Made by a program: the position numbers and the translations under genes. From the NCBI GenBank assembly GCA_020635655.1, contig JACJZI010000007.1, positions 78,323-142,322 of the forward strand: a stretch of 64,000 bases of DNA. The letters are read 5' to 3'. The stretch's first letter is position 1. The number at the start of each line of letters is the position of its first letter. The notes under the pieces are model-generated. The model searched no databases. It was not told where the DNA came from and worked only from the letters and a program-made list of their open reading frames with translations. Below, piece after piece: positions 1,080 to 63,249 of this stretch. Source of the stretch: Flavobacteriales bacterium (GTDB taxonomy: Bacteria > Bacteroidota > Bacteroidia > Flavobacteriales_F > PHOS-HE28).

Positions 1080-1112
1080 CCGGAGCGCGCCCCGAGCAGG
1101 TATTTTTGGCCC

Positions 1113-5335: not shown

Positions 5336-7530
5336 CGGGTCAGTTCATAGAAGCTCGGATCGGAACCTGCCGCATCGCTCACCACGAGCGTGTTGGTGAC
5401 GCTCTCACTGTAGTTCTGCATCAACGACTTCAGTGAGCCGTAGTTGTAGTAGGTATAGATGTCGTCCTGCTTGCCGTCCACCGGCACCCAATAGGATTTT
5501 CCGCTCGCCGTGCGGCCATGGCCCGCATACCAGACCAGGATCGTGTTCACCCGATCGCGGCGCACCAGGTCGCGCAGCTCGCTGTTGAAGAACCGCTCGA
5601 TCTGGTCCTTGGTCAGATTCCTTTTTGTGATCGTTCGCTGGATGGAATACTTGGCGAACGACTTCTGCATCTTGGACACCTCGTTGGTCGGTCCCTGCAG
5701 CGCCGGCATGTACTTGTAGTCCGTGTTCTCGATGAAAACCACCCAGGTGACCCCTGTGGCGGAAGGCGCATTGGTCGCTGTGGCATCACCGCTGGCCGTG
5801 GCAGCACGCGTTGGTGTCGACGCCGCCACGGGTTCCGGTCGCCGACGGGCAATGAAGTAGGTCTCTTCGGCTGCGTTCCCATACTGGTCCTCCACGCGGA
5901 CCGTGAAGCGGTCCTTCCCCGAGACAGGCAGCTTGATGCTGAAATCGGTGGCGTTCGTGTCCGGCACGAAGCTCGCCATCACCCCTTCCACCGTTACGGA
6001 TCGCAACAGGCTGGCGTCCTGGGCATGTCCCTCGAGGAAGACCTCGTCCCGATCGGCGTCGATCATCAGGCTGCGGTCGCTTCCGATCGTCGGCGAGGTG
6101 ATCGACACGACCGGTGGAACACCCTCCGAACGTTCCACGTGAAGCTCCACCGAGGCCACATTGTCGTAGATGTCCTTGACGACCACCTCGATCTTGTCTG
6201 CCTTCGGACCGAGGGGTACCACGACGAAGAATTCCGGATCCTTGTCCTCCTCGGAGAATTCCGCGGGCTTGTCGTTCACTGTGATGGCCTTGATCAGGCT
6301 GTGGTCGCGGACATGGCCGGTGACCTTCACCTGATCCAGGACCGAGGAGACCTGCACGACGTCACCCTGGCGAAAGGGCTCCACCACCGTGATCAATGGA
6401 GGATCGCTCTCCCGGTTCATCTCAAATACGCGCTGTGCGATGCGATCCCGCTCCGCAGCGATCGCCTTGCGGTCCTCATAGGTGGCCGTCGTGTCCTGTT
6501 CGGCCATCTTCTTGGTCCGATCAAGGTCGGCCAGGGCCCCATCCAGATCGAGGTTGGCCTCCTTGCAACGGACCCGTTCCAACATGGCATCGCGGTCTTC
6601 CGGCAACTGCTCGAGCACCCGGTTCAGATCATTGATCGCGTTCTGGAACTGACCGTAGTCCTTGTAATAGACGGCCCGTTGGCGATAGACCTCCGCATCG
6701 TTGCGACCCAGTGCCACGACCTTGCTGATGTCTTCGATCGCCTTCGCGTACTCCTTTTGCAGGGCATAGGCCTTGCTGCGTGTGAACAGCGCGGGCATGC
6801 TGCGCGGGTCAAGTTCGAGGGCCGTCGTTGTTCGTTCCACGGCCTGGTCGAGTGTGCGCAACTGCATCGTGGGCCCCTCGTACGTGGCGTACAATCTCAA
6901 CTGGACCTCGGCCAGCGCGACATAGGCATCCTCATAGGTGTAGTTCCACTCGATCACCTTTTGCAGATCGCTCTCGGCGGTGCGGTAGTCGCGCAATGCG
7001 GTCCGCACCAATCCATGCAGGTAATAGGTGTCCGTGGTCCCCTTCACGTCCAGGGCCCTGTCGGACGCTTCGGTGGCCTTGTCCAGATCACCCTGCACAA
7101 GTGCGACCCGGACCTGAGCGGTAAGCGCATCCAGGTCCTTGGGTCCCGCTTGAACGGCCTTGTCGGCCCATTTGGCGGCCGCATCCGGATCTCCCGCATC
7201 CAGATAGGACAGCGCTGCTTTCGCGGCAGCCGACGCATCGTTCGGCTGAAGCTCCGCCACCTTGGCAAGGTCCGCGGCCGCGTTGGCCTTTTGCCCCAGG
7301 AGGGTATAGACCTCCGCACGGGACCCATATGCTTTCACATACGCCGGGTCCACACGGATGGCGAGCCCATATTTCTCCAGGGCTTCGTCCAATCGCTGTT
7401 CGGCGCGAAGGGACTCGCCCTCCTTGAAGAAGGACTTGCCGCTCTGTGCGTCGCATATCGCGGACCGACCGAACGTCAGTGTGATCAGAAGCAGAAAGGC
7501 ACGGCAGGGAACAATGCCAGGACGAGGCAT
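5332..7530 (-). CDS. secreted TPR repeat / tandem Ig-like / caspase-fold (peptidase C14-like) protein
   Basis: 732-aa ORF with a signal peptide. TPR repeats occupy about aa 30-370, followed by two beta-sandwich-like repeats. The C-terminal caspase-like block reads ILVWYAGHG...TLVVSDAAGS. Its stop overlaps the cyclase start (ATGA at 5332-5335). Confidence 0.85.
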   Translation of the reverse strand: MPRPGIVPCRAFLLLITLTFGRSAICDAQSGKSFFKEGESLRAEQRLDEALEKYGLAIRVDPAYVKAYGSRAEVYTLLGQKANAAADLAKVAELQPNDASAAAKAALSYLDAGDPDAAAKWADKAVQAGPKDLDALTAQVRVALVQGDLDKATEASDRALDVKGTTDTYYLHGLVRTALRDYRTAESDLQKVIEWNYTYEDAYVALAEVQLRLYATYEGPTMQLRTLDQAVERTTTALELDPRSMPALFTRSKAYALQKEYAKAIEDISKVVALGRNDAEVYRQRAVYYKDYGQFQNAINDLNRVLEQLPEDRDAMLERVRCKEANLDLDGALADLDRTKKMAEQDTTATYEDRKAIAAERDRIAQRVFEMNRESDPPLITVVEPFRQGDVVQVSSVLDQVKVTGHVRDHSLIKAITVNDKPAEFSEEDKDPEFFVVVPLGPKADKIEVVVKDIYDNVASVELHVERSEGVPPVVSITSPTIGSDRSLMIDADRDEVFLEGHAQDASLLRSVTVEGVMASFVPDTNATDFSIKLPVSGKDRFTVRVEDQYGNAAEETYFIARRRPEPVAASTPTRAATASGDATATNAPSATGVTWVVFIENTDYKYMPALQGPTNEVSKMQKSFAKYSIQRTITKRNLTKDQIERFFNSELRDLVRRDRVNTILVWYAGHGRTASGKSYWVPVDGKQDDIYTYYNYGSLKSLMQNYSESVTNTLVVSDAAGSDPSFYELTR

Positions 7531-7607
7531 GGGAGCTAGCGATGGGGCCTAAATGTAGTCCGCCCCCTTCCCATCAGGCAAACCCATCATCCTACATCAT
7601 CCGGCAT

Positions 7608-9071
7608 TCACACCCTGAACCGCAGGAAACCGGCGCACATCGACAACGTCGGGGTGCTCTGGCTGAACAAGGAGATCACATCCCGGGTGGCCACTCCAAC
7701 CTCCCAAACGCCGGTTGGCAGTCGGAGCGTAAGACCCATGGGCACCCGTGTATCGTAGTTCCCCCCCGTGGTCATACCCAACGAAATGGTGAAGAACTTC
7801 TTCGGGCTCACCTGACCTCCCAGCGCATATACGGGTTTCTCATAGTTCCCGGCCACCTTGTTCGTGGGTATGATCACATCAAAGCCCACTTCGGCGATCT
7901 CCTTGATGCCATAGGATGCCCCGATGCGTGTCTGTTGCGGTGTGGCGATCTTCTCCTGCTTCTTCCCCTCCCATTTCAGGATGCCGTGTTCACCCAGGAC
8001 GAGGTCGGCATTGTCGAAGATGTTGTAGCTATCGAACCCGGCGCTGGAAAGCTCATAGAGCGTGTCGTTCTGGGCGGTGTACACGTTTCCGTTCCAGGTC
8101 ATCACCCCCAGGTTGGTGTAGGAGACCCCGACCCGCACCACGTTCTTGATGTAGGTACTGAAGCCGATGTCGCCGGAAACACCGCTCCCCACCGGGGTCA
8201 TGATCGTTCCCGACCTGGTGCTGGGGTTCGAGAGCCCCGCATCGCCATAGTCGATGTCGAACCCGGGCGAGAGCGCCGAAAAGGCCTTGAACTCGCCGTC
8301 CTCATACCCCACATCAGCATGTGCGAACCCGGTGAGGTAACGGATGGATGCGCCACCGTACCAGTTCACCACACCGGATGTGCCGATCAGGTACCCCCAG
8401 GACAATGCATATTCCCGCACCCAATCCATGGTCACCTCTGCGTCCTCCATCAATTTGCTGATCGGCTTGCCTTCACCCCGGTCGTTGTAGCCATTGATCA
8501 CCTGGTCGAGGGTGCCCTGAGGCAGGTCCGGTTCGTTGTCGATCACGGTGCTGTCGGCCAGCAGGAGATGTTGGAAATAGGGTGCGGTCCGTCCGAGATA
8601 GAGGATCTCACTGGTGCTCCTATTGAAGCGGTTGTACCATTGGAACCGGTCCGCCACGTGGATCGCGAATCCACCAGCGCTGGCGGTCATCAGCGAAACG
8701 CCGAACAGGCGAAGGTCGCCGTTCAAGGTCAGTTCGGCGTCCGTGAAGTCCTTCGCCACGGCCACCTTCTCCGCGTAGGAGAACTTGTCATCGAAGCCTT
8801 TGACGAAGTCCTTTTTCAGCTCATCCCTGTCGAGCGCATCCGTGTAGAGCGAATAGCCCAGGTCACCAAGGCCGAAGGCCACTTTCTTGCCTTCGTACTT
8901 GCCGCTCCAACCCAGATTGCTCGGATTGATCCCAATGGCCTGGTAATCCGTGGCCAGTGTGGTGGAGATCCCTGACCCACTGCACGGGAACGCGCTCATT
9001 TCGGTCTGTGCGGTGGAGGTGTGCGCAATGCCAAGCAGGACGAGAATGAACAGGTAAGCACGGGACCGCAT
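7608..9071 (-). CDS. outer-membrane beta-barrel protein, unknown family
   Basis: 487-aa ORF with signal peptide MRSRAYLFILVLLGIAHTSTAQ. Shows alternating aromatic/Gly-rich beta-strand pattern throughout. Family not recognised. Confidence 0.7.
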   Translation of the reverse strand: MRSRAYLFILVLLGIAHTSTAQTEMSAFPCSGSGISTTLATDYQAIGINPSNLGWSGKYEGKKVAFGLGDLGYSLYTDALDRDELKKDFVKGFDDKFSYAEKVAVAKDFTDAELTLNGDLRLFGVSLMTASAGGFAIHVADRFQWYNRFNRSTSEILYLGRTAPYFQHLLLADSTVIDNEPDLPQGTLDQVINGYNDRGEGKPISKLMEDAEVTMDWVREYALSWGYLIGTSGVVNWYGGASIRYLTGFAHADVGYEDGEFKAFSALSPGFDIDYGDAGLSNPSTRSGTIMTPVGSGVSGDIGFSTYIKNVVRVGVSYTNLGVMTWNGNVYTAQNDTLYELSSAGFDSYNIFDNADLVLGEHGILKWEGKKQEKIATPQQTRIGASYGIKEIAEVGFDVIIPTNKVAGNYEKPVYALGGQVSPKKFFTISLGMTTGGNYDTRVPMGLTLRLPTGVWEVGVATRDVISLFSQSTPTLSMCAGFLRFRV

Positions 9072-24662: not shown

Positions 24663-25814
24663 TTACCGCGTTGCGCCGGCTATCGCGGGCTCGACATGGC
24701 CGGCGAGCGCCTCCTTTTCATAGATCTCCCGCGTGCAGCTCGCGCCGTTCTTGAAGTAGAATACGCCTCCCCATTTGTGGACGATCCGTTCGTATTCGGT
24801 CGCCACGCCCCCCTGGGTGAGGGTGATCCGTGTGGTCAGGCTGTTCGGTTCCACCTGGAGCTCCTCATCGCGAACGACCTCCTCCACGATCACGGGTACT
24901 GTTGGGCGTTCCTCCGCCCCCGGATCCGCCCGGGCCGGTCGTACCGGAGAATCCTCGTCACCGGCGGTCGCCTGGTCCACGCGACGCCCGTCCTCTCCGA
25001 CATTGACATCAGCGGTCAGGCCATTGTGCGCCACCATCCTTGGCGAAGGGGCCCGTGCGGGTTTCTCCGCCTCTTTGACGGGAGGCTTTGGGGGCGGTAC
25101 CGCTTGTTCATCCTTGACCGCCTCCGCCTGGGCAGCTTCCGCCTCCTGGCGCGCTTGCTCGGCCTTGCGCTCCTGCTCCTTGCGCGCCGCTTCCGCGCGA
25201 TCGGCCTCTTCACGGGCCCGCTCCTCCGCCTGTTTCCTGGCCTCCGCCTCCGCCTTGGCCTGCTGTTTGGCCTCGGCCGCCTGGCGTTTCGCTTCCTCCT
25301 TGGTGTTCTTCTCCTCCTCCTTCTGTTTGTTCGCTACCTGTTCCTGCACGTCCTCCAATTGTGACTGGATCGACTTGGTATAGTCGGTGTCATAGTCGAA
25401 ATCGTCCACGCTCGGCTCATACCGGATGATGCCCACCGGCTGATTGAAGACGACGATGTTGATGTCGTCGTATTGCTTGAAGAGCGAAACGGCGAACTCG
25501 AACGGAACAAAACCGTTCGCAATGGCCTCGGCCGGGGCATGCGTGTCGAACACCAGTTTCTTGGTCACCCAACCCTCCTTCTCGAACGACAGGATGTACT
25601 TATGACCGAAGTCCAGTTCCAGGTCGAACTTGCCCACGCCGTCGGAAAGGGTCCTCTCCTTCTCGCCGTCCTTGTAGACCACGATCCGGGCCCCATCCAT
25701 TCCACCACCCTCGATCTTGGTCCGACCGGTGATGGGAAAGCCGCGCTGTGCTTCTGCCGAGGGCACGAGCGTACATGCGAGCAATGTGGAAAGCAGGAGA
25801 TGGATGGTCCTCAC
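24663..25814 (-). CDS. secreted protein, paralog family member: N-module, charged coil, Pro-rich linker, C-terminal KWG..YFKNG module
   Basis: 383-aa ORF with signal peptide MRTIHLLLSTLLACTLVPSAEAQ. The N-terminal module is homologous to those of the 41954-45796 and 62725-63249 proteins. The C-terminus EYERIVHKWGGVFYFKNG matches EYSKVIAKWGTYYFRNG of the 1280-aa protein. Confidence 0.8.
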   Translation of the reverse strand: MRTIHLLLSTLLACTLVPSAEAQRGFPITGRTKIEGGGMDGARIVVYKDGEKERTLSDGVGKFDLELDFGHKYILSFEKEGWVTKKLVFDTHAPAEAIANGFVPFEFAVSLFKQYDDINIVVFNQPVGIIRYEPSVDDFDYDTDYTKSIQSQLEDVQEQVANKQKEEEKNTKEEAKRQAAEAKQQAKAEAEARKQAEERAREEADRAEAARKEQERKAEQARQEAEAAQAEAVKDEQAVPPPKPPVKEAEKPARAPSPRMVAHNGLTADVNVGEDGRRVDQATAGDEDSPVRPARADPGAEERPTVPVIVEEVVRDEELQVEPNSLTTRITLTQGGVATEYERIVHKWGGVFYFKNGASCTREIYEKEALAGHVEPAIAGATR

Positions 25815-25892: not shown

Positions 25893-26369
25893 ATGAAAAC
25901 GCTGACCGCAATGATCGGTACCCTGACGATCTCCCTGGTATTCGCCAATAGCGGGTTCGGCCAGGACCGCACCAAGGACCTGGCGGTGTTGAACGACCTC
26001 TACGCCGGGTCCGTGAAGTTCCGGATCGATCGAGATGACCGGCTCATCGCGGACCTGTTCGACGACAGCGGTCATTTCCGTGAGGATGCGGTATACATCG
26101 AGTTCCTGGACCCGGACCTGTTCGCCTTCAGCCCGGAGGAGAACGCGGTGGTCCTGAAGTGCAGGGACGACCAGGGGCAATGCATCGAGAAGGAGGTCTT
26201 CAAGTTGAACGTCATCCGCCGCACCGGACGAAGTGCCCTTCCCGCGCCGGCGGACGACGCCTCGGGGCGGAAGGCCATCGCATTGCTGCAACAACTGGTG
26301 CGCGGCGTGCAGCTGGCCCGAACAAGCGAGACCGATGAAACCCGTGCACGTCCAAACCGTAACAAGTGA
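25893..26369 (+). CDS. secreted hypothetical protein
   Basis: Real part of ORF 25473-26369 starts at ATG 25893 (MKTLTAMIGTLTISLVFANSGFGQ signal peptide). GC3-rich. No family recognised. Confidence 0.6.
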   Translation: MKTLTAMIGTLTISLVFANSGFGQDRTKDLAVLNDLYAGSVKFRIDRDDRLIADLFDDSGHFREDAVYIEFLDPDLFAFSPEENAVVLKCRDDQGQCIEKEVFKLNVIRRTGRSALPAPADDASGRKAIALLQQLVRGVQLARTSETDETRARPNRNK

Positions 26370-26392
26370 TCACTCCAGAACCAATGACCGCG

Positions 26393-26926
26393 ATGAAGCA
26401 CATTTGGACGATCCTGCTCGCACTCCCGGCGACCATGCTCCATGCCCAGGACCTGGCCAGTGCCGCCAGGGGGGACGGTACCATGGATAGGACCTATGCC
26501 GAGGCCGAGAAGGCCTATCAACAGACCGAGTATGCCAAGGCGATCGAGCTCTACGGGCAGGTCCTGGCCATGGACCCCGACAACCTGAACGCCTTTCTGC
26601 ATCGCGGGTTCTGCCACAGCCTGAACAAGGACTACGAACTGGCCATCGCGGATTTCAGCTCGGTGATCGCCCGGAAACCTGACCATCTCTGGGCCTACAC
26701 GAGCCGCGGCAGTGCGTACAACAAGTTGAAGAAGTACGACAAAGCGGTCCAGGACTTCGACACGGTCCTCAGCCTGGACCCGAAGAACCAGGAGGCCTAC
26801 AACAACCGTGGCTGGTCGAAGAAGGGGCTTGGGGACCCCAAGGGCGCCTGCAAGGACTGGAAGGCCAGCCAACGCATGGGCAATGCCGAGGCCAAGATCA
26901 TCCTGAACAACAACCGATGCAAATGA
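26393..26926 (+). CDS. secreted TPR repeat protein
   Basis: Start set at ATG 26393 (MKHIWTILLALPATMLHAQ); earlier GTG 26366 and ATG 26384 are possible. Three to four TPR units are present (YAKAIELYGQVLAMDPDN..., YELAIADFSSVIARKPDH..., YDKAVQDFDTVLSLDPKN...). Confidence 0.8.
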   Translation: MKHIWTILLALPATMLHAQDLASAARGDGTMDRTYAEAEKAYQQTEYAKAIELYGQVLAMDPDNLNAFLHRGFCHSLNKDYELAIADFSSVIARKPDHLWAYTSRGSAYNKLKKYDKAVQDFDTVLSLDPKNQEAYNNRGWSKKGLGDPKGACKDWKASQRMGNAEAKIILNNNRCK

Positions 26927-27330
26927 GCCGCACGATCCTCCTGATCACCCTCTCCCTCCTGCTGACCGCCCGGTCACACGCCCAGGACCGCGAAGCATCG
27001 AGTTGTGTGATGAAGACACGCTCGACGTGGGGGCAGCCCTGCGAGAAGTGCGAGTATTACAAGGAGGGCTACAAACGTGACTTTTCCGGCACCTACCAGA
27101 TCACGCTGAAGAACATCTGCAGCGAGTTCGTGGAGGTCAAGGTGGCCGTGCAGGAAACGAACGGCAGTTGGCGGACGTTCCCCGTGCACGCACTCGGACC
27201 CGATGAGGAGATGGAGGCCTTTGCCTGTCACGGTTCGGGCAAGTACCTCTACTGGGTGCGCCGATTGAACGACACGGAGATCATCCTGCCGACCGACCAG
27301 GAGATCCTGACCGAGTACCGCGACCGATAG
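26917..27330 (+). CDS. secreted Cys-containing hypothetical protein
   Basis: 137-aa ORF with signal peptide MQMSRTILLITLSLLLTARSHAQ and six Cys in the mature part. Overlaps the preceding gene by 10 nt. Confidence 0.6.
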   Translation: MQMSRTILLITLSLLLTARSHAQDREASSCVMKTRSTWGQPCEKCEYYKEGYKRDFSGTYQITLKNICSEFVEVKVAVQETNGSWRTFPVHALGPDEEMEAFACHGSGKYLYWVRRLNDTEIILPTDQEILTEYRDR

Positions 27331-27467: not shown

Positions 27468-27860
27468 ATGGCGACCCGCTTGCTGCATATCGACCGTACG
27501 GAGACATCGCCACAGGTCGACCTCGATCTGGAACACGGTCGTCTCGAGTTCATCGGCCGGTCGCTGCCCGCCAATTCGGAACAGTTCTATTCGCGGGTCT
27601 ACCTGTGGCTGGACGATTACCTGCGCGCGCCATTGCCGGAGACGGTGGTGAACATGCGTCTGGACTATCTGGACACAAGCTCATCGAAGCACCTGTACAA
27701 CATCTTCGAGCGCCTGAATGCCGTCAGCGAACGGGGCCAGAAGGTGAGTGTCAACTGGCACTACGAGACCGGTGACGAGGAAATGGCGGAGACCGGCGAG
27801 GACTACCGTGATTTCTTCAAGCTCGACTTCCGCATCATCGAGGTGGCGGAACTGTTCTGA
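27468..27860 (+). CDS. DUF1987 / SiaC-family regulatory protein
   Basis: 130-aa ORF. The segments TSPQVDLDLEHGRLEFIGRSLPANSEQFYSRVYLWLDDY...MRLDYLDTSSSKHLYNIFERL...VNWHYETGDEEMAETGEDY follow the DUF1987 pattern (S.PEN..FY..., YFNTSSSK, W.YE.DDEDM.E.GE). Confidence 0.8.
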   Translation: MATRLLHIDRTETSPQVDLDLEHGRLEFIGRSLPANSEQFYSRVYLWLDDYLRAPLPETVVNMRLDYLDTSSSKHLYNIFERLNAVSERGQKVSVNWHYETGDEEMAETGEDYRDFFKLDFRIIEVAELF

Positions 27861-41953: not shown

Positions 41954-44900
41954 TCAACGACCCTCTGTCTCGGTGTTCCAGATCATCTCGGTGATGCTCT
42001 GTCCGTTCCGGAAATAGTAGGTCCCCCATTTGGCGATGACCTTGCTGTACTCGTCCGCCTTGTTGCCGTCCACGACCACGCGGCGGATGATCACCTTGTT
42101 GCCCTCCGTATAGCTTTCCTCGGTGACCCCCTGCGGGTATTCCTGAGCCAGCTTGCTGCGGTTGTAATCCGCGTAGTCCTTGGGTTGGTTCAAGGGTGTT
42201 CCCTGGATCCGTTCCCGTTCCGCCATGCGTTGGTCGGCACTGCGTTCGGCCAGCTGCGCGGAGCGCTTGTACGCCAGGTCCTTGTCCATGGCCAGCTTTT
42301 CCTGGTTGTCGTGTGCGATCGCATCGCCGCGTTCCTGGATGGCCTTTTGTCGTTCAGCCTGGGCCGACACCTCCTCCCGGGCGTTCGCGTTCCGCTGTCG
42401 TCCGGCATGCGCCAGGTCCGCTTGTTCCTGCTGGATGGCCTTCGCCCGAGCCTGCGCGTCCTCCACGGCTTTCTCATGCAGTTCGTTGCGCGAGGCGATC
42501 ACATCCACGGTGGCCTGTTGCCGGTCCCGATCGGCCTCATAGGTGGACCGACGCTCCTCCTGCTCCTGGGCCTGCCTGTCGGATTCCGTTCTGGCCAGGG
42601 CATCCTTGAACGCCTGGACCGCCTCCGCGTTCGCGAGCCGTTGTTCCTCGCTGCCCTGATAGAGCGCCTGTTGGTCGAACTCGTGGCGTTCCTTGATCTT
42701 GATGCCGCTGTCCCTTCGCTCGGCCGCCTCCTCCGCATTGCTCCGTTCCTCCTCGCTCACGTCGTGCTTCAGCTTCTTGATCCGCTCGTACTTCTCCGCC
42801 TCCTCGCGCATCCGCGCCTCGCGCATGAACTGCTCGGCCTCCTGCTCCTTGCGGAAGTCGATCGTGTTCCCTTGTTCGTGCGATCGGACCGGAGTTTCCT
42901 TGTTCGCTTTTTGCGCGGCTGCTTCCGCGGCCTGGCGACGTCGTTCGGCCTCGGCCTCCAGGAGCTTGTCGATCTGTTCGATGCGGGAGGCAGGATAGGT
43001 CTCGTCGGGCTTGATGTCCAGCGCCTGCGTGTACAATGAACGGGCCCCGTCGTAGTCCTTGTCCGTGAACGCGAGGTCGGCCTGGGCGATCGCTTCGTTG
43101 TACCTGGCCTCCACTGCTTTCGCCGCTTCCAGACGGTCCCGCTCGGCCTGGGCCGCTAGTCGGGCCGCTTCCGCATCGGCCTCGGCCTTCCTTCTGCGCT
43201 CCTCCTCCGCCCTGCGTTGCTCCTCGGCAAGACGCTCCGCATCGGAACGACGCTTCGCGGCATCCGCCAGGGTATCCTCGATCTCCGCCAGCTTGTCCTT
43301 CGGATACTGTTCATCCGGTTTCACGGTCAATGACCTGGTGTACTTGTCCCGGGCTTCGTCGTAATCCTTCTGACCGAGCGCCAGGTCCGCGGCGGCGATC
43401 AATTCCCTGTACTCCTTCTCGATCGCCTCCTGTTCCTCAAGGCGCTTCCTTTCGAGGGCGTCCTGACGTGCCTTTTCATCCGCAGCTTGCTGGGCAGCCA
43501 GGCTGTCCTCCCTGGCCTTCCGCGCCTGTTCCTCCAGGATCGATGCGATCTCAGCGAGCTTGTCCCTGGGATATTGCTCCTCAGGCTTCACGGAGGATGC
43601 ATCCGTGTAATTGGTCTTCGCTTCGTCATATTTCTTGGCGCCCATCGCCTGGTCCGCCTTGGCGAGAAGCTGGGCGTATTGCGCATCCCGCTCCCTCCTT
43701 TCCCGCTCCTGCCGCTCCTTCTCGGCCTGCTCCCTGGCCTGGGCGTCGAGCTTGGACCCGATCTCGGCGATGCGCTCCTGCGGATGACGCTCCCCGGGTT
43801 TCAATTGGAGCGCATCCTGATAATCGTTCAGGGCCGAGGTCCATTGTTCAAGGTCATAGGCCTTGTCCGCACTGGCAATAAGCTCGGCATAGCGTGCTTC
43901 AAGCTCGCGTTGCTTGCGCTCCTCTTCCGCTTTTCGGGCCTGTTCCGCGAGCGTTGCATCGATCTCGGCGATCCGGTCCTTGGGGTACCGCTTATCGGGC
44001 TTCACATCGCTGGCACTGACGAATTTGGCCCGCGCCGCCTCGAATTCCTCCTTGCGGAAGAGCTTGTCACCATCATCGATGAGCGCCTGGTATTGTTCGT
44101 CCAGTTCCTTTTGATGGCGTTCCTCCTCGGCCTTCCTGGCCAGTTCTTCCAGCTTCTTGTCGATCGCGGCCAGCTGGTCCTTGGGGTATTTCTCGCCGGG
44201 CTTCAGGCCCAAGGCATCATTGTATTTGCCCTTGGCCTCATCGTACTTCTCCCCATGGAAAGCGGCATCGGCCGCGGCGATCACCGCGTCGTATTGGTCC
44301 TGCAATTCCTTCGCCTTCCGCTCTTCCTCCGCCTTCCTGGCCAGTTCTTCCAGCTTTTTGTCAATGGCCGTCAATTGGTCCTTCGGATACTTTTCATCCG
44401 GCTTCAGCCCCAAAGCATCGGTGTACCTGGTCTTGGCCTCATCGTACTTCTCCCCGTGGAAGGCGGCGTCGGCAGCGGCGATCGCCGCGTCGTACTGGTC
44501 CTGCAGCTCCTTCTTCTTCCGCTCCTCCTCGGCCTTCTTCGCCAGCTCCTCCAGTTTCTTGTCGATGGCCGCCAGTTGGTCCTTGGGGTACTTCTCGTCC
44601 GGTTTCAGTCCGGAAGCCTCCGTGTACTTGGTCCGGGCCTGGTCGTAGTTCTCCGCCTTGAAGGAGGCGTCCGCGGCGGCGATGGCGGCCTGGTAGTTGG
44701 CATCCAGTTCACGCTGCTTTCGTTCCTCTTCGGCCTTTTTCGCCAACTCCTCCAACTTCTTGTCGATGGCCGCCAGTTGGTCCTTCGGGTACTTCTCATC
44801 GGGCATCAGTCCCGCAGCCTCGGTGTACTTCGTCTTGGCCTGGTCGTAGTTCTCCGACTTGAACGCCCCGTCCGCCGCGGCGATCGCCGCATCGTACTTG

Positions 44901-45796
44901 TCCTTGAGCTCCTTGGCCTTGCGTTCCTCCTCCGCCTTCTTGGCCAGGTCGGCCAGGATCCCTTCGATCTCCTTCACCTTCTGCTTGGGGTAGACCTCCT
45001 TGTCCTTGATCCCCGAGGCCTCCAGGTACTTGGATTTGGCGTTCTCATACTCCTTTTTGTTGTACAACCCATCAGCGTCCTTGATCAGGGTGGCATACTG
45101 CTCATCCTTCTTCTTCTCGCCCTCCTGGTCGTCCAGGCGCATCTGGGCATCGCTCAGTTTGGCGGTGGCCACCGGCTCCTTGGGTTTGATCGTGAGGGCT
45201 TCGGTGAACGACGCCACGGCCTTCTTGTAGTCGGATTGGGCCATTGCCGCGTCGCCCTGTTGCATCGCCTTGGCAAAGTCCTCCTCGAGGTTCGCCTCCC
45301 GTTTCTGCTTGTCCTCGTACTCCTTCATCAACCGGGCGATCTCGTTGCGGATCTGCTCGGTGTACTCCAGGTCCCAGGTCACCTCATTGGTCGCCGGATC
45401 GAACTTGGCCTTGCCGATCGGCTTGTCCAGCACGGCGAAGTCGATGCCGGGCAGTTCGCTGAACAAGGTCATCTCGATGTTCATGCCGTGGCCGCCCACC
45501 CGTTCCTCCTCAGGGATGTTCCGGGTATCGATCTGGATGTTCTTTCCCACCAATCCCGGCTTTGCGTACATGATCTTGTAGTCGGCACCATAGTCGAGAT
45601 TGAACTCGTACTTGCCGCTGGCATTGGTCACCACATCGGTCAGCTTCGCGCCGTTCTTGTAGACCGTGACCGTGATCCCGTCCAGCTTCTTGCCGGAGGA
45701 ATAGTCCTTCACTGTCCCATAGACGTATACGTTGTCCACCTGGGCCGTGGCTCCCAGCGTGAGCAGGACGAAAAGGAAGAACAGCAGCTTGCGCAT
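41954..45796 (-). CDS. 1280-aa secreted repeat protein, paralog family member: N-module, about 11 TPR-like/coiled-coil units, charged region, C-terminal KWG..YFRNG module
   Basis: Signal peptide MRKLLFFLFVLLTLGATAQ. N-module reads GTVKDYSSGKKLDGITVTVYKNG...GKYEFNLDYGADYKIMYAKPG. The repeat consensus is Y..AIAAAD..F....YD.A...Y..A..LKPDEKYPKDQLAAIDKKLEELAKKAEEERK. C-terminus reads EYSKVIAKWGTYYFRNGQSITE. Confidence 0.9.
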   Translation of the reverse strand: MRKLLFFLFVLLTLGATAQVDNVYVYGTVKDYSSGKKLDGITVTVYKNGAKLTDVVTNASGKYEFNLDYGADYKIMYAKPGLVGKNIQIDTRNIPEEERVGGHGMNIEMTLFSELPGIDFAVLDKPIGKAKFDPATNEVTWDLEYTEQIRNEIARLMKEYEDKQKREANLEEDFAKAMQQGDAAMAQSDYKKAVASFTEALTIKPKEPVATAKLSDAQMRLDDQEGEKKKDEQYATLIKDADGLYNKKEYENAKSKYLEASGIKDKEVYPKQKVKEIEGILADLAKKAEEERKAKELKDKYDAAIAAADGAFKSENYDQAKTKYTEAAGLMPDEKYPKDQLAAIDKKLEELAKKAEEERKQRELDANYQAAIAAADASFKAENYDQARTKYTEASGLKPDEKYPKDQLAAIDKKLEELAKKAEEERKKKELQDQYDAAIAAADAAFHGEKYDEAKTRYTDALGLKPDEKYPKDQLTAIDKKLEELARKAEEERKAKELQDQYDAVIAAADAAFHGEKYDEAKGKYNDALGLKPGEKYPKDQLAAIDKKLEELARKAEEERHQKELDEQYQALIDDGDKLFRKEEFEAARAKFVSASDVKPDKRYPKDRIAEIDATLAEQARKAEEERKQRELEARYAELIASADKAYDLEQWTSALNDYQDALQLKPGERHPQERIAEIGSKLDAQAREQAEKERQERERRERDAQYAQLLAKADQAMGAKKYDEAKTNYTDASSVKPEEQYPRDKLAEIASILEEQARKAREDSLAAQQAADEKARQDALERKRLEEQEAIEKEYRELIAAADLALGQKDYDEARDKYTRSLTVKPDEQYPKDKLAEIEDTLADAAKRRSDAERLAEEQRRAEEERRRKAEADAEAARLAAQAERDRLEAAKAVEARYNEAIAQADLAFTDKDYDGARSLYTQALDIKPDETYPASRIEQIDKLLEAEAERRRQAAEAAAQKANKETPVRSHEQGNTIDFRKEQEAEQFMREARMREEAEKYERIKKLKHDVSEEERSNAEEAAERRDSGIKIKERHEFDQQALYQGSEEQRLANAEAVQAFKDALARTESDRQAQEQEERRSTYEADRDRQQATVDVIASRNELHEKAVEDAQARAKAIQQEQADLAHAGRQRNANAREEVSAQAERQKAIQERGDAIAHDNQEKLAMDKDLAYKRSAQLAERSADQRMAERERIQGTPLNQPKDYADYNRSKLAQEYPQGVTEESYTEGNKVIIRRVVVDGNKADEYSKVIAKWGTYYFRNGQSITEMIWNTETEGR
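42947..45271 (-). repeat. in-frame tandem repeat array, 67-aa / 201-bp period in the core (44093-44896), more divergent units on both sides
   Basis: Repeat units start at about aa 176, 233, 301, 368, 435, 502, 569, 636, 707, 796 and 899. Units 301-568 are near-identical in protein sequence and spaced exactly 67 aa apart. Confidence 0.85.
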
Positions 45797-45900: not shown

Positions 45901-47028
45901 ATGACCACCGTCAGCATCTGGACCGACCGCAGTTTCCCGGACCGCGCCGAGGTCGTGGTGATCGGTGCGGGCATCGTTGGTTTGTGCACAGCGCTGTTCC
46001 AGCAACGCCGATCGCCGCATCAGCGCGTGCTGGTGCTGGAACGCGGTCATGTGCCGGACGGGGCCACGGTCCGCAACGCCGGCTTCGCCTGCTTCGGCAG
46101 CCCCAGCGAACTGCTGGCCGACATCGCCGCGGAAGGCGCCGACGTGGCGCTCGCCCGCGTGGAGGAGCGCTGGCGTGGCCTGCAGGAACTGCGTGCCGAG
46201 CTTGGCGATGCGGCCATCGGGTTCGTTCCCTGCGGCGGTCATGAGGTGTTCCAGGATGATCACTTATACACCGCTACGGCCGAAGGGTTCGATCGGTTGA
46301 ACGACCTGCTCCGCGGCATCTTCGGAAGCCCGGTCTACCGCTGGGCGGACGAGCTGCTCGGCGACATGGACTTCGCCCATCTGGCCCGGACCGATCGGGA
46401 AGGCGCCGTGGACAGCGGCCGGCTCGCGAAGCACCTGCTCGAACACGTGCGTTCCGCCGGCGTCGAAGTGCGGACCAACACACGGGTGGAGGGTCTGGAG
46501 GAAAACGGCTCGCAGGTCGCGATCCGCTGCGCGGACGGGAGTACGGTCCATGCGGGCCGCGTTGTGGTCGCGACGAACGGGGCCGCCGCGCAGTTGTTGC
46601 CGGACGTGGACGTGCGCCCCGCCCGCGGACAGGTATTGATCACCGGACCGTTGACCGGGCCGATACCTCGGGGAACATTCCATGCGGACGAGGGCTTCAT
46701 CTACTTCCGGGACCTGGGCGACCGCATCCTGCTCGGGGGAGCGCGGAACCTGGACATCGCAGGCGAGACCACCCTGGACGATGGGACCACACCGGCGATC
46801 CAGGACCATCTGGAGCGCTTCCTGGCCGAACGCATCCTGCGCGGCCGCTCCTTCCAGGTGGAACGGCGCTGGAGCGGCACAATGGGCTTTGGCGCGCACA
46901 CGAAATCCCCCCTGGTGGAACGCCTATCGGACCGGGTTGTGGCGGCGGTCCGCCTCAGCGGCATGGGCGTGGCGATCGGGATCCGCGTGGCGCGAAAGGC
47001 GGCGGAGCTGCTGGTTGATCAGGGATGA
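45901..47028 (+). CDS. FAD-dependent oxidoreductase (DAO / glycine-D-amino-acid oxidase-like)
   Basis: 375-aa ORF. Dinucleotide-binding N-terminus VVVIGAGIVGLCTALF. DAO-family overall pattern. Confidence 0.85.
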   Translation: MTTVSIWTDRSFPDRAEVVVIGAGIVGLCTALFQQRRSPHQRVLVLERGHVPDGATVRNAGFACFGSPSELLADIAAEGADVALARVEERWRGLQELRAELGDAAIGFVPCGGHEVFQDDHLYTATAEGFDRLNDLLRGIFGSPVYRWADELLGDMDFAHLARTDREGAVDSGRLAKHLLEHVRSAGVEVRTNTRVEGLEENGSQVAIRCADGSTVHAGRVVVATNGAAAQLLPDVDVRPARGQVLITGPLTGPIPRGTFHADEGFIYFRDLGDRILLGGARNLDIAGETTLDDGTTPAIQDHLERFLAERILRGRSFQVERRWSGTMGFGAHTKSPLVERLSDRVVAAVRLSGMGVAIGIRVARKAAELLVDQG

Positions 47029-58966: not shown

Positions 58967-61111
58967 ATGCAAGGTATGGTCCGCTCGATCGTTCAACTCG
59001 CGATCATGGTGCTGCCGGTGTTCATGTGCCGGGCCCAGGACACCATTGCATTCCCACAACAGGCCGAACGGCCGGTGGGAGCTCTCTTCCAGTTCCTCGA
59101 GGACAGCATTGGGAGCATGTCCCTGAAGGAAGCCGTCCATGACCGGAATTACCGTCCACTGGAACAGGACGTACCCAACCTTGGAACATCGGGTTCGGTC
59201 TTCTGGGCAAGGGCAGTGATCAAGAACAACTCAGAGAAAAGGGAGGTGGTCCTGTCCCTGCCACACCCGGAGATAGACCTGTTGGATGTTTATATCCTGG
59301 AGCGATCGGCCCCGGTCCACCTTGCCCATGTCGGCCAAAGCGTTCCACGTGATCAACGGATCGCATCCGACCCTGAATTCCTCTTCCGACTTCCCATCCC
59401 GTCCGGGGCATCCTTGCCCGTGCTGCTCCGCGTACAAAGCAACAAGCAACTGCAGCTTCCACTGATCCTGACCACGGACTCCGAGTTCGACCAACATCGC
59501 GCAGGCCGGAACCTGTTCCTGGGCGGCTATATGGGGATCATGCTGGTCATGGCGATCTACAACCTGTTCGTGTTCTTCTCCTTCCGCGAACGGAGCTATT
59601 TCCTCTACGTTGTCTATATCCTGTTCGTCTGTTGCACACAGCTTGCGTTCATCGGTATCGGACCATTCTATCTCTGGGCGGGAAGTGTGTGGATCTCCAG
59701 CAAAGCATCGTTGATCCTGACCCTGCTGACCGCGATGGCCGCAAGCGAGTTCATCCGTTCGTTCCTTCGCACAAAGGAGTACATACCCAAGATCGACGGT
59801 ACTATCCCGTACTTCTACGGGCTCTTCCTTCTCAACATCGCGATCTACTTGTTCGTGAGCCCGACCACGGGATACAAGGTCGCCCAGTTGATCTCCGGCA
59901 TGTTCGCTTTCACCTTGCTGGGAATGATCATAGCCGTCTGGAGAAAGGGAGTGCGGCAAGCCGGCTTCATGTTGCTGGCATGGAGCGCCTTCCTCACCGG
60001 CACAATGGTCTTCGTGATGAAGGACATGGGCATCCTCCCCTACAACTCCATCACCATCTATACCATGCCCGTCGGCTCGGCGATCGAGGGCGTCCTGCTC
60101 TCCTTCGGCCTGGCCGACCGCATCAACATCCTGCGTCGCGAGAAGGAACGCTCGCAGGCCGACGCGCTCCGGATCTCACGCGAGAACGAGCGCATCATCC
60201 GCGAACAGAACGTGATCCTAGACCAGAAGGTGAAGGAACGCACCCTGGAACTGCAGGAATCGAACGAGCACCTGAAGCGCACCCAGACCCAACTGGTGAA
60301 CGCCGAGAAGATGGCCTCGTTGGGCCAGCTCACCGCCGGCATCGCGCACGAGATCAACAACCCGGTGAACTTCATCACCAGCAACATCCCTCCATTGCGC
60401 AGGAACCTCGACGAGATGTTGCAGATCCTGAAGGCCTATCGGAGCATGGGACCCGATGCGACGAGCGACCAGATCGCCGCGATCGTCGACATGGCCGGGG
60501 AACTGGACCTTGACGAATCCCTGAACGAACTACCGGACATCATCGCCAGCATCGAGGAGGGCGCCGACCGCACCACCGAGATCGTACGCGGGCTCCGGAA
60601 CTTCAGTCGGTTGGACGAGGACAGCCTCAAACCGGCCGACATCAACGAGGGCATCCGCTCGACCCTGACGGTGCTCGGCTCCGAGCTCCGGGACCAGGTG
60701 GAGATCGAGCTGGACCTGGAGCCCCTGCCCCAGGTGGAATGCTTCCCGGGCAAGCTCAATCAGGTGTTCATGAACATGCTGAACAATGCCATGCAAGCCA
60801 CCCGCCAGCGCTATGGCGGCGACCGCAAGGGACACATCCGTGTGCGCACCAGCGCCACGGACCAGGAAGTGACCATCCGCATCGAGGACGACGGTACGGG
60901 CATGACGCCCGAGGTCGTCTCCCGGATCTATGAACCCTTCTTCACCACCAAGGACGTGGGTGAAGGCACCGGTCTGGGCCTGAGTATCGCATACGGTATC
61001 ATCGAAAGGCACCACGGACGGATCGGCGTGGAGAGCACACCCGGTGTCGGGACCATATTCCAGGTAAGCCTGCCGATCCATCAGCCCCGTGTGGCACAGA
61101 AACGCGCGTGA
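58967..61111 (+). CDS. 7TMR-DISM sensor histidine kinase
   Basis: 714-aa ORF. Has a signal/extracellular DISMED2-like domain, seven predicted TM helices and a coiled coil. HisKA box is AGIAHEINNPVNFI. HATPase boxes include NNAMQAT and DDGTGM...GEGTGLGLSI. Confidence 0.9.
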   Translation: MQGMVRSIVQLAIMVLPVFMCRAQDTIAFPQQAERPVGALFQFLEDSIGSMSLKEAVHDRNYRPLEQDVPNLGTSGSVFWARAVIKNNSEKREVVLSLPHPEIDLLDVYILERSAPVHLAHVGQSVPRDQRIASDPEFLFRLPIPSGASLPVLLRVQSNKQLQLPLILTTDSEFDQHRAGRNLFLGGYMGIMLVMAIYNLFVFFSFRERSYFLYVVYILFVCCTQLAFIGIGPFYLWAGSVWISSKASLILTLLTAMAASEFIRSFLRTKEYIPKIDGTIPYFYGLFLLNIAIYLFVSPTTGYKVAQLISGMFAFTLLGMIIAVWRKGVRQAGFMLLAWSAFLTGTMVFVMKDMGILPYNSITIYTMPVGSAIEGVLLSFGLADRINILRREKERSQADALRISRENERIIREQNVILDQKVKERTLELQESNEHLKRTQTQLVNAEKMASLGQLTAGIAHEINNPVNFITSNIPPLRRNLDEMLQILKAYRSMGPDATSDQIAAIVDMAGELDLDESLNELPDIIASIEEGADRTTEIVRGLRNFSRLDEDSLKPADINEGIRSTLTVLGSELRDQVEIELDLEPLPQVECFPGKLNQVFMNMLNNAMQATRQRYGGDRKGHIRVRTSATDQEVTIRIEDDGTGMTPEVVSRIYEPFFTTKDVGEGTGLGLSIAYGIIERHHGRIGVESTPGVGTIFQVSLPIHQPRVAQKRA

Positions 61112-62637
61112 TCATGCAGAAGGAACGGATCAAAGTGCTGTATGTGGACGACGAGGAAGGGAACCTTCGTTCGTTCAAGGCCAACTTCCGTCGCGACTTC
61201 GACGTGCACATCGCTTCCTCAGCGAAGGAGGCCCTTGAAGTGCTCGCGAAGGAGCACATGCACGTGGTGATCTCCGACCAGCGCATGCCCGGTGAGAACG
61301 GTGCCGAACTGCTGGCGCAGGTGAAGGAGCTGCACCCCTCGGCCATCCGCATGCTGCTGACCGGCTATGCGGATATCCAGGCGGTCATCGATGCGGTGAA
61401 CAAAGGCCGCATCTATGCCTACACCACCAAACCCTGGGACCCCAGCGACCTGAAGCTGCGCATCCAACAGGCGTACGAGGTCTATCGGCTCCGCAATGAA
61501 AAGGACCAGCTCCTTCGTCGCTACCAACAGGTGTTCGCCGCCTCGGGTGACCCCATCGTGATCGTGGACGAGAATGGTACCATCGCCGAATTGAACCCGG
61601 CGCTCGAGCAGCTCATCGGCAGTGACCGGGCGACCCTCATCCGAGGGGGCCTCACCAGTCTGATCACCGACATGGAAGACCTCCGCAAGGCCTTGCGTGG
61701 ACGGCGCAAGGGCAAGTCCTTCCAGAATGTCGACCTTACCCTGAATACGCCGGACGGACGTACCATCGACTGTCTGCTGACCGTGTCCCTGCTCGGCAAC
61801 AACAGCGAAGGGAAGCGCCTGTATCAGGCGATCATCAAGGATATCACGGACCGCAAGCAGGAGGAGGAGCGCCTGCGCAAATTGAACTACGATCTCGACC
61901 GGCGGGTGTCCGTGCGCACCAAACAGTTGCTCGAGGCACTCGAGGACCTCGGCTCGTTCAGCTACACGGTGGCCCACGACCTGCGCTCCCCCCTGAAGAA
62001 CATCCTCGCGCTCTCGGACCTCCAACTGGAGCAATTGTCCGGGAAAGTGGAGGAACAGGACCTCGCGGAACGGATCCATCGGGGGGCCGAGCGCATGATC
62101 CAACTGGTCGACGATCTGCTTCGGTTCGCGCAGACCAATACCCGCGAGCTGCAGCGGGAGGAAGTGGACATGCATGTCCTTGTGGAGCAATTGGTCCACG
62201 AACTGCCCTCCGCGGGTCATGCCCCGACGATTGTCAATTCAGTTCCACCAGGATCCCTGGTCAAAGTGGACCGCGCCATGATGAGCGTCCTGTTGCAGAA
62301 CCTGATCTCGAACGCGGTGAAATTCACGCGCTCCGTCACCGCCCCACGCGTGGAGATCGGTCTGGACACGGAACCCGAGGGCCACCAACTCTGGGTGAAG
62401 GACAATGGCGTGGGCTTCGATGGCAGTGGCTCCAAGCTCGTGTTCGCTGCATTCAAGCGGATGCATCGAGCGGACCAGTTCGAGGGGAACGGGGTCGGAC
62501 TGGCCATCGTGCAGCGCATTGTCAACAAACACGGGGGTGAGGTCTGGGCCGAAAGCAGGCCCGGGCATGGGACCACCATCCATGTTCGGATACCCACCGG
62601 GGCGGCCATTGAACAGGCCCTGCCCTTCGCTTCCTGA
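61108..62637 (+). CDS. hybrid REC-PAS-histidine kinase
   Basis: 509-aa ORF. GTG 61108 overlaps the upstream stop; ATG 61114 is an alternative start. REC region has VLYVDDE, VVISDQRMPG, LTGYAD and KPWD. A PAS region follows. HisKA box is FSYTVAHDLRSPL. HATPase region has DNGVGF...GNGVGLAI. Confidence 0.9.
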   Translation: MIMQKERIKVLYVDDEEGNLRSFKANFRRDFDVHIASSAKEALEVLAKEHMHVVISDQRMPGENGAELLAQVKELHPSAIRMLLTGYADIQAVIDAVNKGRIYAYTTKPWDPSDLKLRIQQAYEVYRLRNEKDQLLRRYQQVFAASGDPIVIVDENGTIAELNPALEQLIGSDRATLIRGGLTSLITDMEDLRKALRGRRKGKSFQNVDLTLNTPDGRTIDCLLTVSLLGNNSEGKRLYQAIIKDITDRKQEEERLRKLNYDLDRRVSVRTKQLLEALEDLGSFSYTVAHDLRSPLKNILALSDLQLEQLSGKVEEQDLAERIHRGAERMIQLVDDLLRFAQTNTRELQREEVDMHVLVEQLVHELPSAGHAPTIVNSVPPGSLVKVDRAMMSVLLQNLISNAVKFTRSVTAPRVEIGLDTEPEGHQLWVKDNGVGFDGSGSKLVFAAFKRMHRADQFEGNGVGLAIVQRIVNKHGGEVWAESRPGHGTTIHVRIPTGAAIEQALPFAS

Positions 62638-62724: not shown

Positions 62725-63249
62725 ATGATGAAGCAACATCTCCTTTTCACCGCCATGGCCGTCGCCATCGGCATCAACTCCCAAGCCCAAGGCCGACGAC
62801 TGGTCGACGAACGCGACCAGGCCCAGGGCTGGTATCTCCCCGTCCATGGTGAAGTGCTGGTGGACGGCAAACGGATCAACGACTACCAGATCGACCTCTA
62901 CAAGGGCGATGAACGCCTCGGTGAGGTGGCCGTGAAGAAGAACGGGAAGTTCGAGCTCGACCTGGATATCGACAATACGTTCATGATCCGTGTGCACAAG
63001 GAGGGCTATCAGGACAAGCTGGTGCTCATCGACACCTCCCTACCGCCCGACCTGGTCACCTATCCGGACTATGAGTGCTTTGTCAGCCTGACGCCAGTGG
63101 AGAAGGAGAAAGGGATCGACGTGTTCTACACCGATTTCCCGTCGGCCATCGTCCGCTACAACGAGGAAATGGGCGGCTTCTACCACAGCGAGCACTACCT
63201 GGAGCACATCCAGAACAAGCTGTCAGGCGTGGCACAGGCCAGCTTCTGA
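62725..63249 (+). CDS. small secreted protein, minimal member of the paralog family (N-module only)
   Basis: 174-aa ORF with signal peptide MMKQHLLFTAMAVAIGINSQAQ. The segment GKFELDLDIDNTFMIRVHKEGYQDKLVLIDTSLPPD...PSAIVRYNEEMGGFYHSEHYLEHIQNKL aligns to the N-modules of the 383-aa and 1280-aa proteins. Confidence 0.75.
   Translation: MMKQHLLFTAMAVAIGINSQAQGRRLVDERDQAQGWYLPVHGEVLVDGKRINDYQIDLYKGDERLGEVAVKKNGKFELDLDIDNTFMIRVHKEGYQDKLVLIDTSLPPDLVTYPDYECFVSLTPVEKEKGIDVFYTDFPSAIVRYNEEMGGFYHSEHYLEHIQNKLSGVAQASF

Follow-up and report, generated by a model that had tools for sequence, protein, structure and literature searches.

What are the secreted proteins that share terminal modules in this stretch of Flavobacteriales DNA, and what might they do in the cell? 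The window, that is, the whole stretch of 64,000 nucleotides that was analysed, had been described in a first-pass annotation as containing three secreted paralogues at positions 41954-45796. This range contains gene A alone, while genes B and C lie elsewhere in the window. A, B and C are members of a genuine, uncurated family of exported proteins that is confined to certain lineages, and this modular family is a new combination built from a known domain vocabulary. With regard to function, the reading that we favour, with a probability of roughly 40%, is that these are lineage-specific, Sec-exported, soluble periplasmic structural proteins that act as scaffolds or tethers. The N-terminal module is called here the head, the C-terminal module the tail, and the spacer between them the stalk. 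The three genes and their parts are as follows.

24663..25814, minus strand: gene B, an open reading frame of 383 aa with signal peptide (aa 1-22), head (23-165), SAH-type helix (146-232), Pro-rich/disordered linker (233-312) and tail (313-375), from its AF2 model, composition and conservation profile
41954..45796, minus strand: gene A, an open reading frame of 1280 aa with signal peptide, head, TPR-like repeat rod, charged helical region and tail
45743..45796, minus strand: A signal peptide (aa 1-18), cleavage ATA/Q, read from the sequence
45302..45742, minus strand: A head (aa 19-165), a CarboxypepD_reg-like sandwich with a family-specific hairpin and helix
42932..45301, minus strand: A stalk (aa 166-955), one canonical TPR followed by about 11 units of about 67 aa
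42167..42931, minus strand: A charged region (aa 956-1210), of low hydrophobicity, 69% E/K/R/A/Q/D
41957..42166, minus strand: A tail (aa 1211-1280), YPQGVTEE...EYSKVIAKWGTYYFRNGQSITEMIW, similar to that of B by BLASTP (2e-8)
62725..63249, plus strand: gene C, an open reading frame of 174 aa with signal peptide and stand-alone head

The N-terminal module of about 140 aa that the three proteins had been said to share was recovered in every BLASTP comparison (A with B, E 2e-13, 28% over 138 aa; B with C, E 9e-12; A with C, E 4e-7), and the proteins align across the entire head. The second module, at the C-termini of A and B, was likewise recovered (E 2e-8, 38% over 52 aa), and the similarity of both modules is well above chance. 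The family is real, but three was an undercount, since the genome contains at least six clear head genes and one weak one. Besides A, B and C, at least three further genes encode stand-alone heads, and a third tail-bearing protein (contig C3:97464-98279) has one TPR-like unit in place of the head. More than 440 orthologues were found for B and 188 of 900-1500 aa for A, the latter conserved along their full length and every one annotated as hypothetical, and orthologues of C are present across the genus. In the profiles of A and B, the termini are the best-conserved parts, far above the stalks. The signal peptides read earlier on all three proteins are of the Sec/SPase-I type and are followed by Gln at +1 (ATA/Q, AEA/Q and SQA/Q, from the sequence), in agreement with the Bacteroidetes Q-rule, by which Gln follows the cleavage site (PMC5837995). 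None of the three proteins shows a lipobox that orthologues conserve, a beta-barrel or a T9SS CTD match.

The first half of the head had been likened to a CarboxypepD_reg-type sandwich. This likeness was confirmed by PF13620 (CarboxypepD_reg), which matches 30 of 43 family modules at E<=0.01, and by an AF2 model that resembles transthyretin-like domains. The head of A scores 28.1 bits (E 2.7e-6) where the gathering score is 32.3, and PF13620 gave no match to B and C; judged from its sequence, the head is a distant relative of PF13620 and not a curated member. The model, made for gene C, is a compact and confident domain (pLDDT 87, pTM 0.79), whose Foldseek neighbours are transthyretin-like sandwiches only (E 2e-5 to 1e-3), among them carboxypeptidase D TTL, SusC NTE, teneurin TTR and intradiol dioxygenase sandwiches. 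Together they assign a seven-strand transthyretin-like beta-sandwich fold to the head. Within the genome, its nearest relatives are both CRDs of a PorE-like protein with TPR-PD40-CRD-OmpA architecture, and a genuine PorE-like gene lies at contig C8:30997-33195. The sandwich is followed by a family-specific extension with the pattern L-F-x4-G-x-D...P-x-G...Y...D-x-x-Y-T-x-x-I. A, B and C show the anatomy that defines the family, namely a signal peptide, the sandwich with its extension, an optional stalk and an optional tail, and profiles of the extension and the tail recover the genes of the window at E 1e-15 to 1e-30.

The stalks measure about 0, 150 and 1050 aa in C, B and A, in line with the earlier estimate. 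In B, a charged segment of 87 aa (89% E/K/R/A/Q/D, 5% hydrophobic) precedes a segment with 16% Pro, so that both the Pro-rich stretch and the TolA-domain-II-like spacer reported before were found again, the latter as a likeness of composition only (TolA models, 15-16 bits). The spacer of A had been described as charged. A charged region does exist, with strong conservation confined to a short stretch around aa 979-1008, but the spacer also contains about 11 ordered 67-aa units with the pattern Y..A...Y..A....P.E.YP...I..I and a charged helix (motif listing), and a tandem period of 201 bp over 44121-44947. Three stretches match TPR_2 (PF07719; E 3.4e-13, 49.1 bits against a cut-off of 27), the best at aa 179-206; the 67-aa units are TPR-like only.

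Stalk length is not tightly fixed, since B-type spacers range from about 100 to about 400 aa and A-type proteins from about 960 to about 1800 aa within one order. This weakens the earlier proposal of an envelope-spanning ruler of graded length: many stalks are much longer than the width of the periplasm, that of A, with about 1050 aa of helical repeats, by far, and the picture of a plain perpendicular strut or ruler fails for A. A-type proteins might instead run parallel to the membranes as a lateral periplasmic polymer or "periskeleton" without inner-outer bridging, in which heads, tails and TPR-like units assemble a filament or mesh that shapes or stiffens the cell; Vibrio CrvA, a periplasmic coiled-coil polymer, offers an analogy. 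A stalk too long for a perpendicular span, a repeat number that differs between species while the termini stay constant, and the presence of A-type proteins in the core of the order all favour such a polymer. Moreover, a subfamily with five to six heads strung in one chain of about 1100 aa, with position-specific conservation, suggests head-to-head arrays. However, hydrophobic positions in the stalks are too sparse for classical coiled-coil polymerisation, and the tandem-head proteins form a separate clade and are no fusion of paralogues A-F. A lateral polymer seems unlikely.

All 132 genomes from the organism's order encode the tail, which points to a core role in the cell. Both modules also occur in a few neighbouring families, neither was found in about 297 other Bacteroidota genomes sampled, and the carriers identified include no cultured organism. 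The family had not been recognised at first reading, and Pfam and NCBIfam indeed contain no model for B, C or the tail. All homologues bear the name hypothetical, and no known domains with an established joint function correspond to the modules. Such proteins could be shuffled structural domains (CRD-like, TPR and low-complexity linkers), with each paralogue serving an unrelated process and no function common to all. Each paralogue does have its own gene neighbourhood, and CarboxypepD_reg sandwiches are generic building blocks, as a profile search of this type returned 11,175 matches, mostly generic repeats. Nevertheless, the tail and the head extension peculiar to the family share one narrow phyletic range, head and tail repeatedly occur in combination in three or four classes of length, and in one genome a row of head-only genes lies beside an A-type gene, all of which makes a mere assortment of domains improbable. 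The extension and the tail are two uncurated sequence elements that could become new domain families.

The tail is the most conserved part of A (HMM E 2e-11), with the consensus E-Y-x-K-V-x3-W-G-x2-Y-F-x-N-G, and its 55-60 aa or so are predicted to form five strands and a helix (AF2 model of B). It gave no match in Pfam (E<=10), NCBIfam or the PDB, and shows no detectable similarity to known peptidoglycan- or membrane-binding domains. In 309 of 309 proteins it lies within 40 aa of the C-terminus, a position that was itself a selection criterion. A place at the extreme C-terminus resembles that of a sorting signal, and the tail could be a new signal for sorting or anchoring onto or across the outer membrane or into vesicles, with the stalks as spacers of surface or extracellular fibrils for adhesion or matrix formation; the third tail-bearing protein, with its different N-terminal part, and the long charged stalks typical of such fibrils fit this idea. 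The T9SS CTD, however, is by definition a 7-strand sandwich (PMC11285876), and the tail, with five strands and a helix in about 55 aa, matches neither TIGR04183 nor TIGR04131 (NCBIfam, E<=1), so that the family was rejected as T9SS cargo. Furthermore, the tail-bearing proteins, two to six per genome, all belong to this one family and include no enzyme or adhesin, and the head-only paralogues are entirely devoid of it. Surface fibrils appear quite improbable.

The following gene neighbours were considered.

25893..27330, plus strand: cluster divergent from B, encoding three small secreted proteins (158 aa, a 186-aa TPR protein and a Cys-rich protein of 137 aa)
27468..27860, plus strand: SiaC-family (DUF1987) phosphoprotein gene beside the B cluster (PF09345, E 1.8e-36)
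45901..47028, plus strand: FAD-dependent oxidoreductase-like gene, divergent from A (GxGxxG-type N-terminus and homologue annotation)
58967..62637, plus strand: 7TMR-DISM histidine kinase and response-regulator/PAS/kinase genes, immediately upstream of C (Pfam)

No envelope-biogenesis operon was found around the family genes, the neighbours of which are mostly housekeeping or unrelated. The three small secreted proteins adjoin B in 46, 68 and 77 of 80 loci, and their cluster is also present in a different family (locus L123), which makes them candidate periplasmic partners of B. Only the TPR protein has a Pfam match, and the Cys-rich protein was not found in a 300-genome sample of the phylum. 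The divergent pair of A-type and oxidoreductase-like genes is also seen in three genomes of another family, the partner being absent at one further A-type locus (L120). The least probable of the alternatives, that the heads are periplasmic ligand- or sensor-binding modulators of membrane kinases, C serving the 7TMR-DISM/PAS kinase cascade and B the SiaC partner-switch protein, draws on 7 of 9 genus loci in which C closes the kinase operon and on 75 of 80 loci in which SiaC neighbours the B cluster. Both linkages, however, are lost in more distant relatives: in eight loci of other families, stand-alone modules have no kinase within 6 kb, and the conserved B cluster of L123, in family f60, has no SiaC gene. 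Other head-only paralogues sit amid housekeeping genes, and SiaC is a cytoplasmic protein.

In the reading of A, B and C as soluble periplasmic scaffolds or tethers, the analysis demonstrates homology, domain anatomy, export signals, phyletic pattern and synteny, and we infer periplasmic residence, bridging and the identity of partners. The head would be a protein-docking unit, and in A and B its C-terminal helix would run on into a rigid stalk, formed in B by a single-alpha-helix E/K/R/A segment and then a Pro-rich segment, and in A by about 11 TPR-like three-helix units and then the charged region. The beta-rich tail of about 60 aa may dock in turn on a different component of the envelope, be it a protein or peptidoglycan. 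C and the other head-only paralogues, at least three in number, could sit on the docking sites of the longer proteins or regulate them without forming a bridge. A more specific proposal, which we regard as doubtful, sees the family as a system not described before, which tethers or couples force in the periplasm of a lineage related to Flavobacteriales and devoid of Tol-Pal and Lpp. To our knowledge, Bacteroidota are devoid of Braun's lipoprotein. In such a force-coupling system, the CRD/NTE-like head might dock on TonB- or PorE-type machinery or on the small secreted neighbours of B, the novel tail might bind peptidoglycan or the outer membrane, interchangeable stalks (SAH, polyproline or TPR rod) might set reach or stiffness, and the head-only paralogues might be competitors. 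PorE-like and OmpA-like proteins explain only part of the cohesion of the Bacteroidota envelope layers, and this core, multi-paralogue family offers concrete candidates for further envelope architecture proteins; it is limited to few, mostly uncultured lineages, and its function is one that we infer throughout.

Among known systems, the PorE-like proteins (PG1058; TPR/beta-propeller/CRD/OmpA_C lipoproteins) resemble the family in several respects. The CRDs of the PorE-like protein encoded in the same genome come closest to the sandwich of the head, a near-complete family head adjoins the OmpA domain in another PorE-like protein, both have TPR elements, and both are periplasmic Bacteroidota proteins, the family presumably so. 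In contrast to PorE, the family has no lipobox, PD40 propeller or OmpA_C peptidoglycan-binding domain, its head has an extra hairpin and helix, and it has a novel C-terminal tail; with only CRD-like and TPR-like parts found, A, B and C were rejected as PorE. The CRD is dispensable for PorE function (PMC12773672), so the closest relative of the head gives little functional guidance. Bacteroidota lack tol-pal, PorE has been proposed as an outer membrane-peptidoglycan tether, and "other similar systems" are still expected (PMC12204202).

The CarboxypepD_reg-like N-terminal extension (NTE) of TonB-dependent transporters of the SusC type shares the fold of the head (Foldseek match to the BT3090 NTE, 9hfj, E 4e-4) and is periplasmic, as the family would be, and has been reported to bear on TonB coupling (PMC12204202). 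The head of the family, however, is not joined to a plug or barrel, TM-scores are 0.4-0.48 with the sandwich alone matching, and the NTE is without the family-specific extension of about 50 aa. The domain II spacers of TolA and TonB have the same type of composition as the B stalk (PMC12204202), and B likewise pairs an E/K/A/R/Q helix and a Pro-rich segment before a small globular C-terminal domain. Unlike them, B has no N-terminal transmembrane anchor or SHLS motif and begins with a cleaved signal peptide and then a beta-sandwich, its C-terminal domain is unrelated to domain III, and no ExbBD/TolQR genes are linked to the family. As a TolA (TIGR02794 / NF007065), B was rejected with 15-16 bits where the cut-offs are 59 and 213, the charged helix alone matching; as a TonB, the family was rejected with only the Pro-rich stretch in common, no TonB_C Pfam match and no TM anchor. 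Compared with the CpoB/YbgF- and BamD-type TPR proteins (TPR_6-like), A is devoid of a trimerisation domain or lipid anchor, and its units have an extra long charged helix and form an 11-copy array, but they share the helix-turn-helix and the Y..A...Y..A....P...YP pattern. The 'YP' signature is typical of these CpoB/YbgF- and BamD-type periplasmic TPR proteins.

The three secreted proteins of the window, here called A, B and C, were read from the following ORFs:

41954-45796, minus strand: gene A, a single ORF encoding 1280 aa
24663-25814, minus strand: gene B, encoding 383 aa
62725-63249, plus strand: gene C, encoding 174 aa

The first-pass annotation had assigned the range 41954-45796 to the whole family; this range does contain A, while B and C lie elsewhere in the window, whose G+C content is about 61%. 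The similarity that had been proposed among their N-terminal modules (the head) is real, with BLASTP values of 2e-13 for A/B, 9e-12 for B/C and 4e-7 for A/C, and the C-terminal module (the tail) is likewise common to A and B (BLASTP 2e-8). The signal peptides of A, B and C were also confirmed as SPase-I-type, each followed directly by Gln, as the Q-rule describes for proteins exported in Bacteroidetes (PMC5837995). The restriction of the family to three paralogs did not hold, as the genome encodes further stand-alone N-module proteins, three of them clear (C22:167413, C19:335238 and C12:244383) and one weak (C19:603828), as well as a third tail-bearing protein, which lacks a head:

C3:97464-98279, minus strand: signal peptide, one TPR-like 'YP' unit, Pro-rich linker and tail

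The single TPR-like unit of this protein is of the kind repeated in A. Together with the head-only genes, it identifies the head, the TPR-like unit, the linker and the tail as building blocks that are combined in several ways. The orthologue sets comprise more than 440 proteins for B and 188 for A, with C found genus-wide, and conservation in A and B is highest at both termini and poor in the middle.

With regard to the head, 30 of 43 diverse examples match the Pfam family CarboxypepD_reg at E<=0.01, and the head of A scores under the gathering score of that family. With a diverse alignment as input, AlphaFold gave a confident model of C (pLDDT 87, pTM 0.79), in which a sandwich is supplemented by a hairpin, at residues 120-133 of the mature sequence modelled, and by a C-terminal helix. 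Foldseek matches to this model were transthyretin-like sandwiches only, among them the N-terminal extension (NTE) of SusC (9hfj), the TTL domain of carboxypeptidase D and the TTR domain of teneurin, with TM-scores of 0.40-0.48 that leave the head extension of about 50 aa without a known counterpart. The closest relatives of the head within the genome are the CarboxypepD_reg-like domains (CRDs) of the following protein:

C8:30997-33195, plus strand: PorE-like TPR/PD40/2xCRD/OmpA protein

The order TPR-PD40-CRD-OmpA is a PorE-like architecture (PMC12773672). Another PorE-like protein has a near-complete head adjoining its OmpA domain. The head belongs to the PorE-CRD/SusC-NTE group.

The tail spans about 55-60 aa and is predicted by AF2 to form five strands and a helix with pLDDT >90. 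Searches of Pfam with 14 tails at E<=10 returned no recurring family, so that a likeness to MORN, KWG or choline-binding hairpins is only an impression. No tail match was obtained when tail-bearing proteins were searched against NCBIfam, and a PDB sequence search with a B-family profile gave low-complexity matches only. The multi-domain nature of the full B model (pTM 0.34) left Foldseek without a match below E 0.07. The family is outside Pfam and NCBIfam, all of its homologues carrying either the label hypothetical or no more than "carboxypeptidase regulatory-like". Its new sequence elements are the head extension and the tail, the other parts being known domain vocabulary in a new arrangement.

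Between the conserved ends, the stalk of B includes an 87-aa stretch composed of 89% E/K/R/A/Q/D and 5% hydrophobic residues, which AF2 predicts to be one long helix of the single-alpha-helix type; in the 80-aa segment after it, Pro accounts for 16%. The stalk of A consists of one canonical TPR, about 11 units of about 67 aa (TPR_2, E 3.4e-13; DNA period 201 bp) and 255 charged aa. The spacers have a TolA/TonB-type composition. Variation in repeat number within the A array was sought in metagenomes, where short-read contigs break inside the array and the joints seen there are thus uninterpretable. In another family, a 607-aa B-type protein (locus L123, G324:C2:978000-990500, at 4932-6755) lacks the Pro-rich part, and near-perfect repeats of the 16-aa AEAKRKADEDAKRAAD type make up its stalk of about 330 aa.

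Among 1.84 billion representative proteins searched by profile, complete heads were found in stand-alone proteins of 173-216 aa, in head-plus-tail proteins of two size classes (350-470 and 1150-1660 aa) and in a separate subfamily with 2-6 tandem heads. Proteins of about 1100 aa with 5-6 tandem complete heads include P0261, P0266, P0268, P0320, P0324 and others. In the tree, the modules of the tandem-head proteins sort according to their place in the chain, pointing to a fixed array of ancient origin. An origin of these proteins as fusions of separate paralogues was rejected, since the modules form their own clade, grouped by position, with 100% SH-aLRT support in a tree from a quick search. 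In 309 head-plus-tail proteins, a sample biased by its mode of collection, spacer lengths cluster near 150, 340, 685 and 1050-1175 aa.

Of 300 genomes sampled from the phylum, only that of the window and three from one other family, including a Cryomorphaceae MAG, contain the head extension and the tail; family members were also found in the nearest class-level relatives. All 132 genomes of the organism's own order carry the tail, at 1-6 copies each. Their A-type reading frames measure about 960 to 1800 aa, with a correlation between length and repeat count of r = 0.69. Exact look-ups and name searches for a cultured host gave only MAG or hypothetical entries. The window derives from a Flavobacteriales-type MAG of activated sludge, the nearest public relatives being MAGs labelled "Flavobacteriales bacterium". 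The DNA of the locus occurs in sludge and wastewater metagenomes, and the search for expression evidence found it in DNA metagenomes only.

Gene A is monocistronic and divergent from an FAD-dependent oxidoreductase-like gene (45901-47028, plus strand), a pairing that recurs for A-type genes in the other family and is missing at one further locus. In a genome of another family (L113, G087:C180:20000-32000, at 782-8442), three head-only genes lie in tandem, separated from an A-type gene by an IS-type transposase gene, the whole row being divergent from the FAD oxidoreductase gene. The neighbours of B are more extensive:

25893-27330, plus strand: three small secreted proteins divergent from B, namely a 158-aa protein, a 186-aa TPR protein ending in NNRCK and a 137-aa protein with six Cys
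27468-27860, plus strand: orphan SiaC-family (DUF1987) phosphoprotein gene, beside the cluster in 75/80 related loci

In a set of 80 loci, the three members adjoin B in 46, 68 and 77 cases, and the cluster, which also lies beside the 607-aa B-type gene of L123, is kept across families. Two of its three proteins have no Pfam family, and the 137-aa protein shares the narrow phyletic range of B. Near the SiaC-family gene, which is itself absent from the distant L123, neither a SiaA nor a SiaB partner is encoded. Within the genus, and only there, gene C closes a 7TMR-DISM/PAS kinase operon. Searches for operon partners found variable genes downstream of B and housekeeping genes around the head-only genes of other families, and the surroundings of the third tail protein were uninformative. 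At L121 (G321:C44:17000-29500, at 494-6310), an ExbB-ExbD-ExbD cluster with no recognisable TonB gene is encoded on the strand opposite to a 322-aa head-plus-tail gene, at a distance of 2.4 kb; this proximity may be a coincidence.

A, B and C carry export signals but neither a lipid anchor nor a barrel or T9SS signal, a combination that points to a probable periplasmic location. This location, the PorE-CRD/SusC-NTE origin of the head, the TolA/TonB-like spacers, the conserved termini and the universality in one order would best fit a role as periplasmic scaffolds or tethers that dock at both ends, on sites that the head-only paralogues may also use. The earlier proposal of a graded ruler spanning the envelope is weakened, as close species differ widely in stalk length and many stalks are longer than a periplasm could plausibly be wide. 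By the same observations, A is equally compatible with a lateral scaffold and with a bridge. A signalling role, surface fibrils or the lack of any common function among the paralogues are less probable readings.

For A-type proteins, the lateral reading would have a loose analogue in periplasmic coiled-coil polymers such as Vibrio CrvA. With regard to tethering, Bacteroidota are devoid of tol-pal, PorE has been proposed as a tether between the outer membrane and peptidoglycan, and further such systems are expected (PMC12204202).
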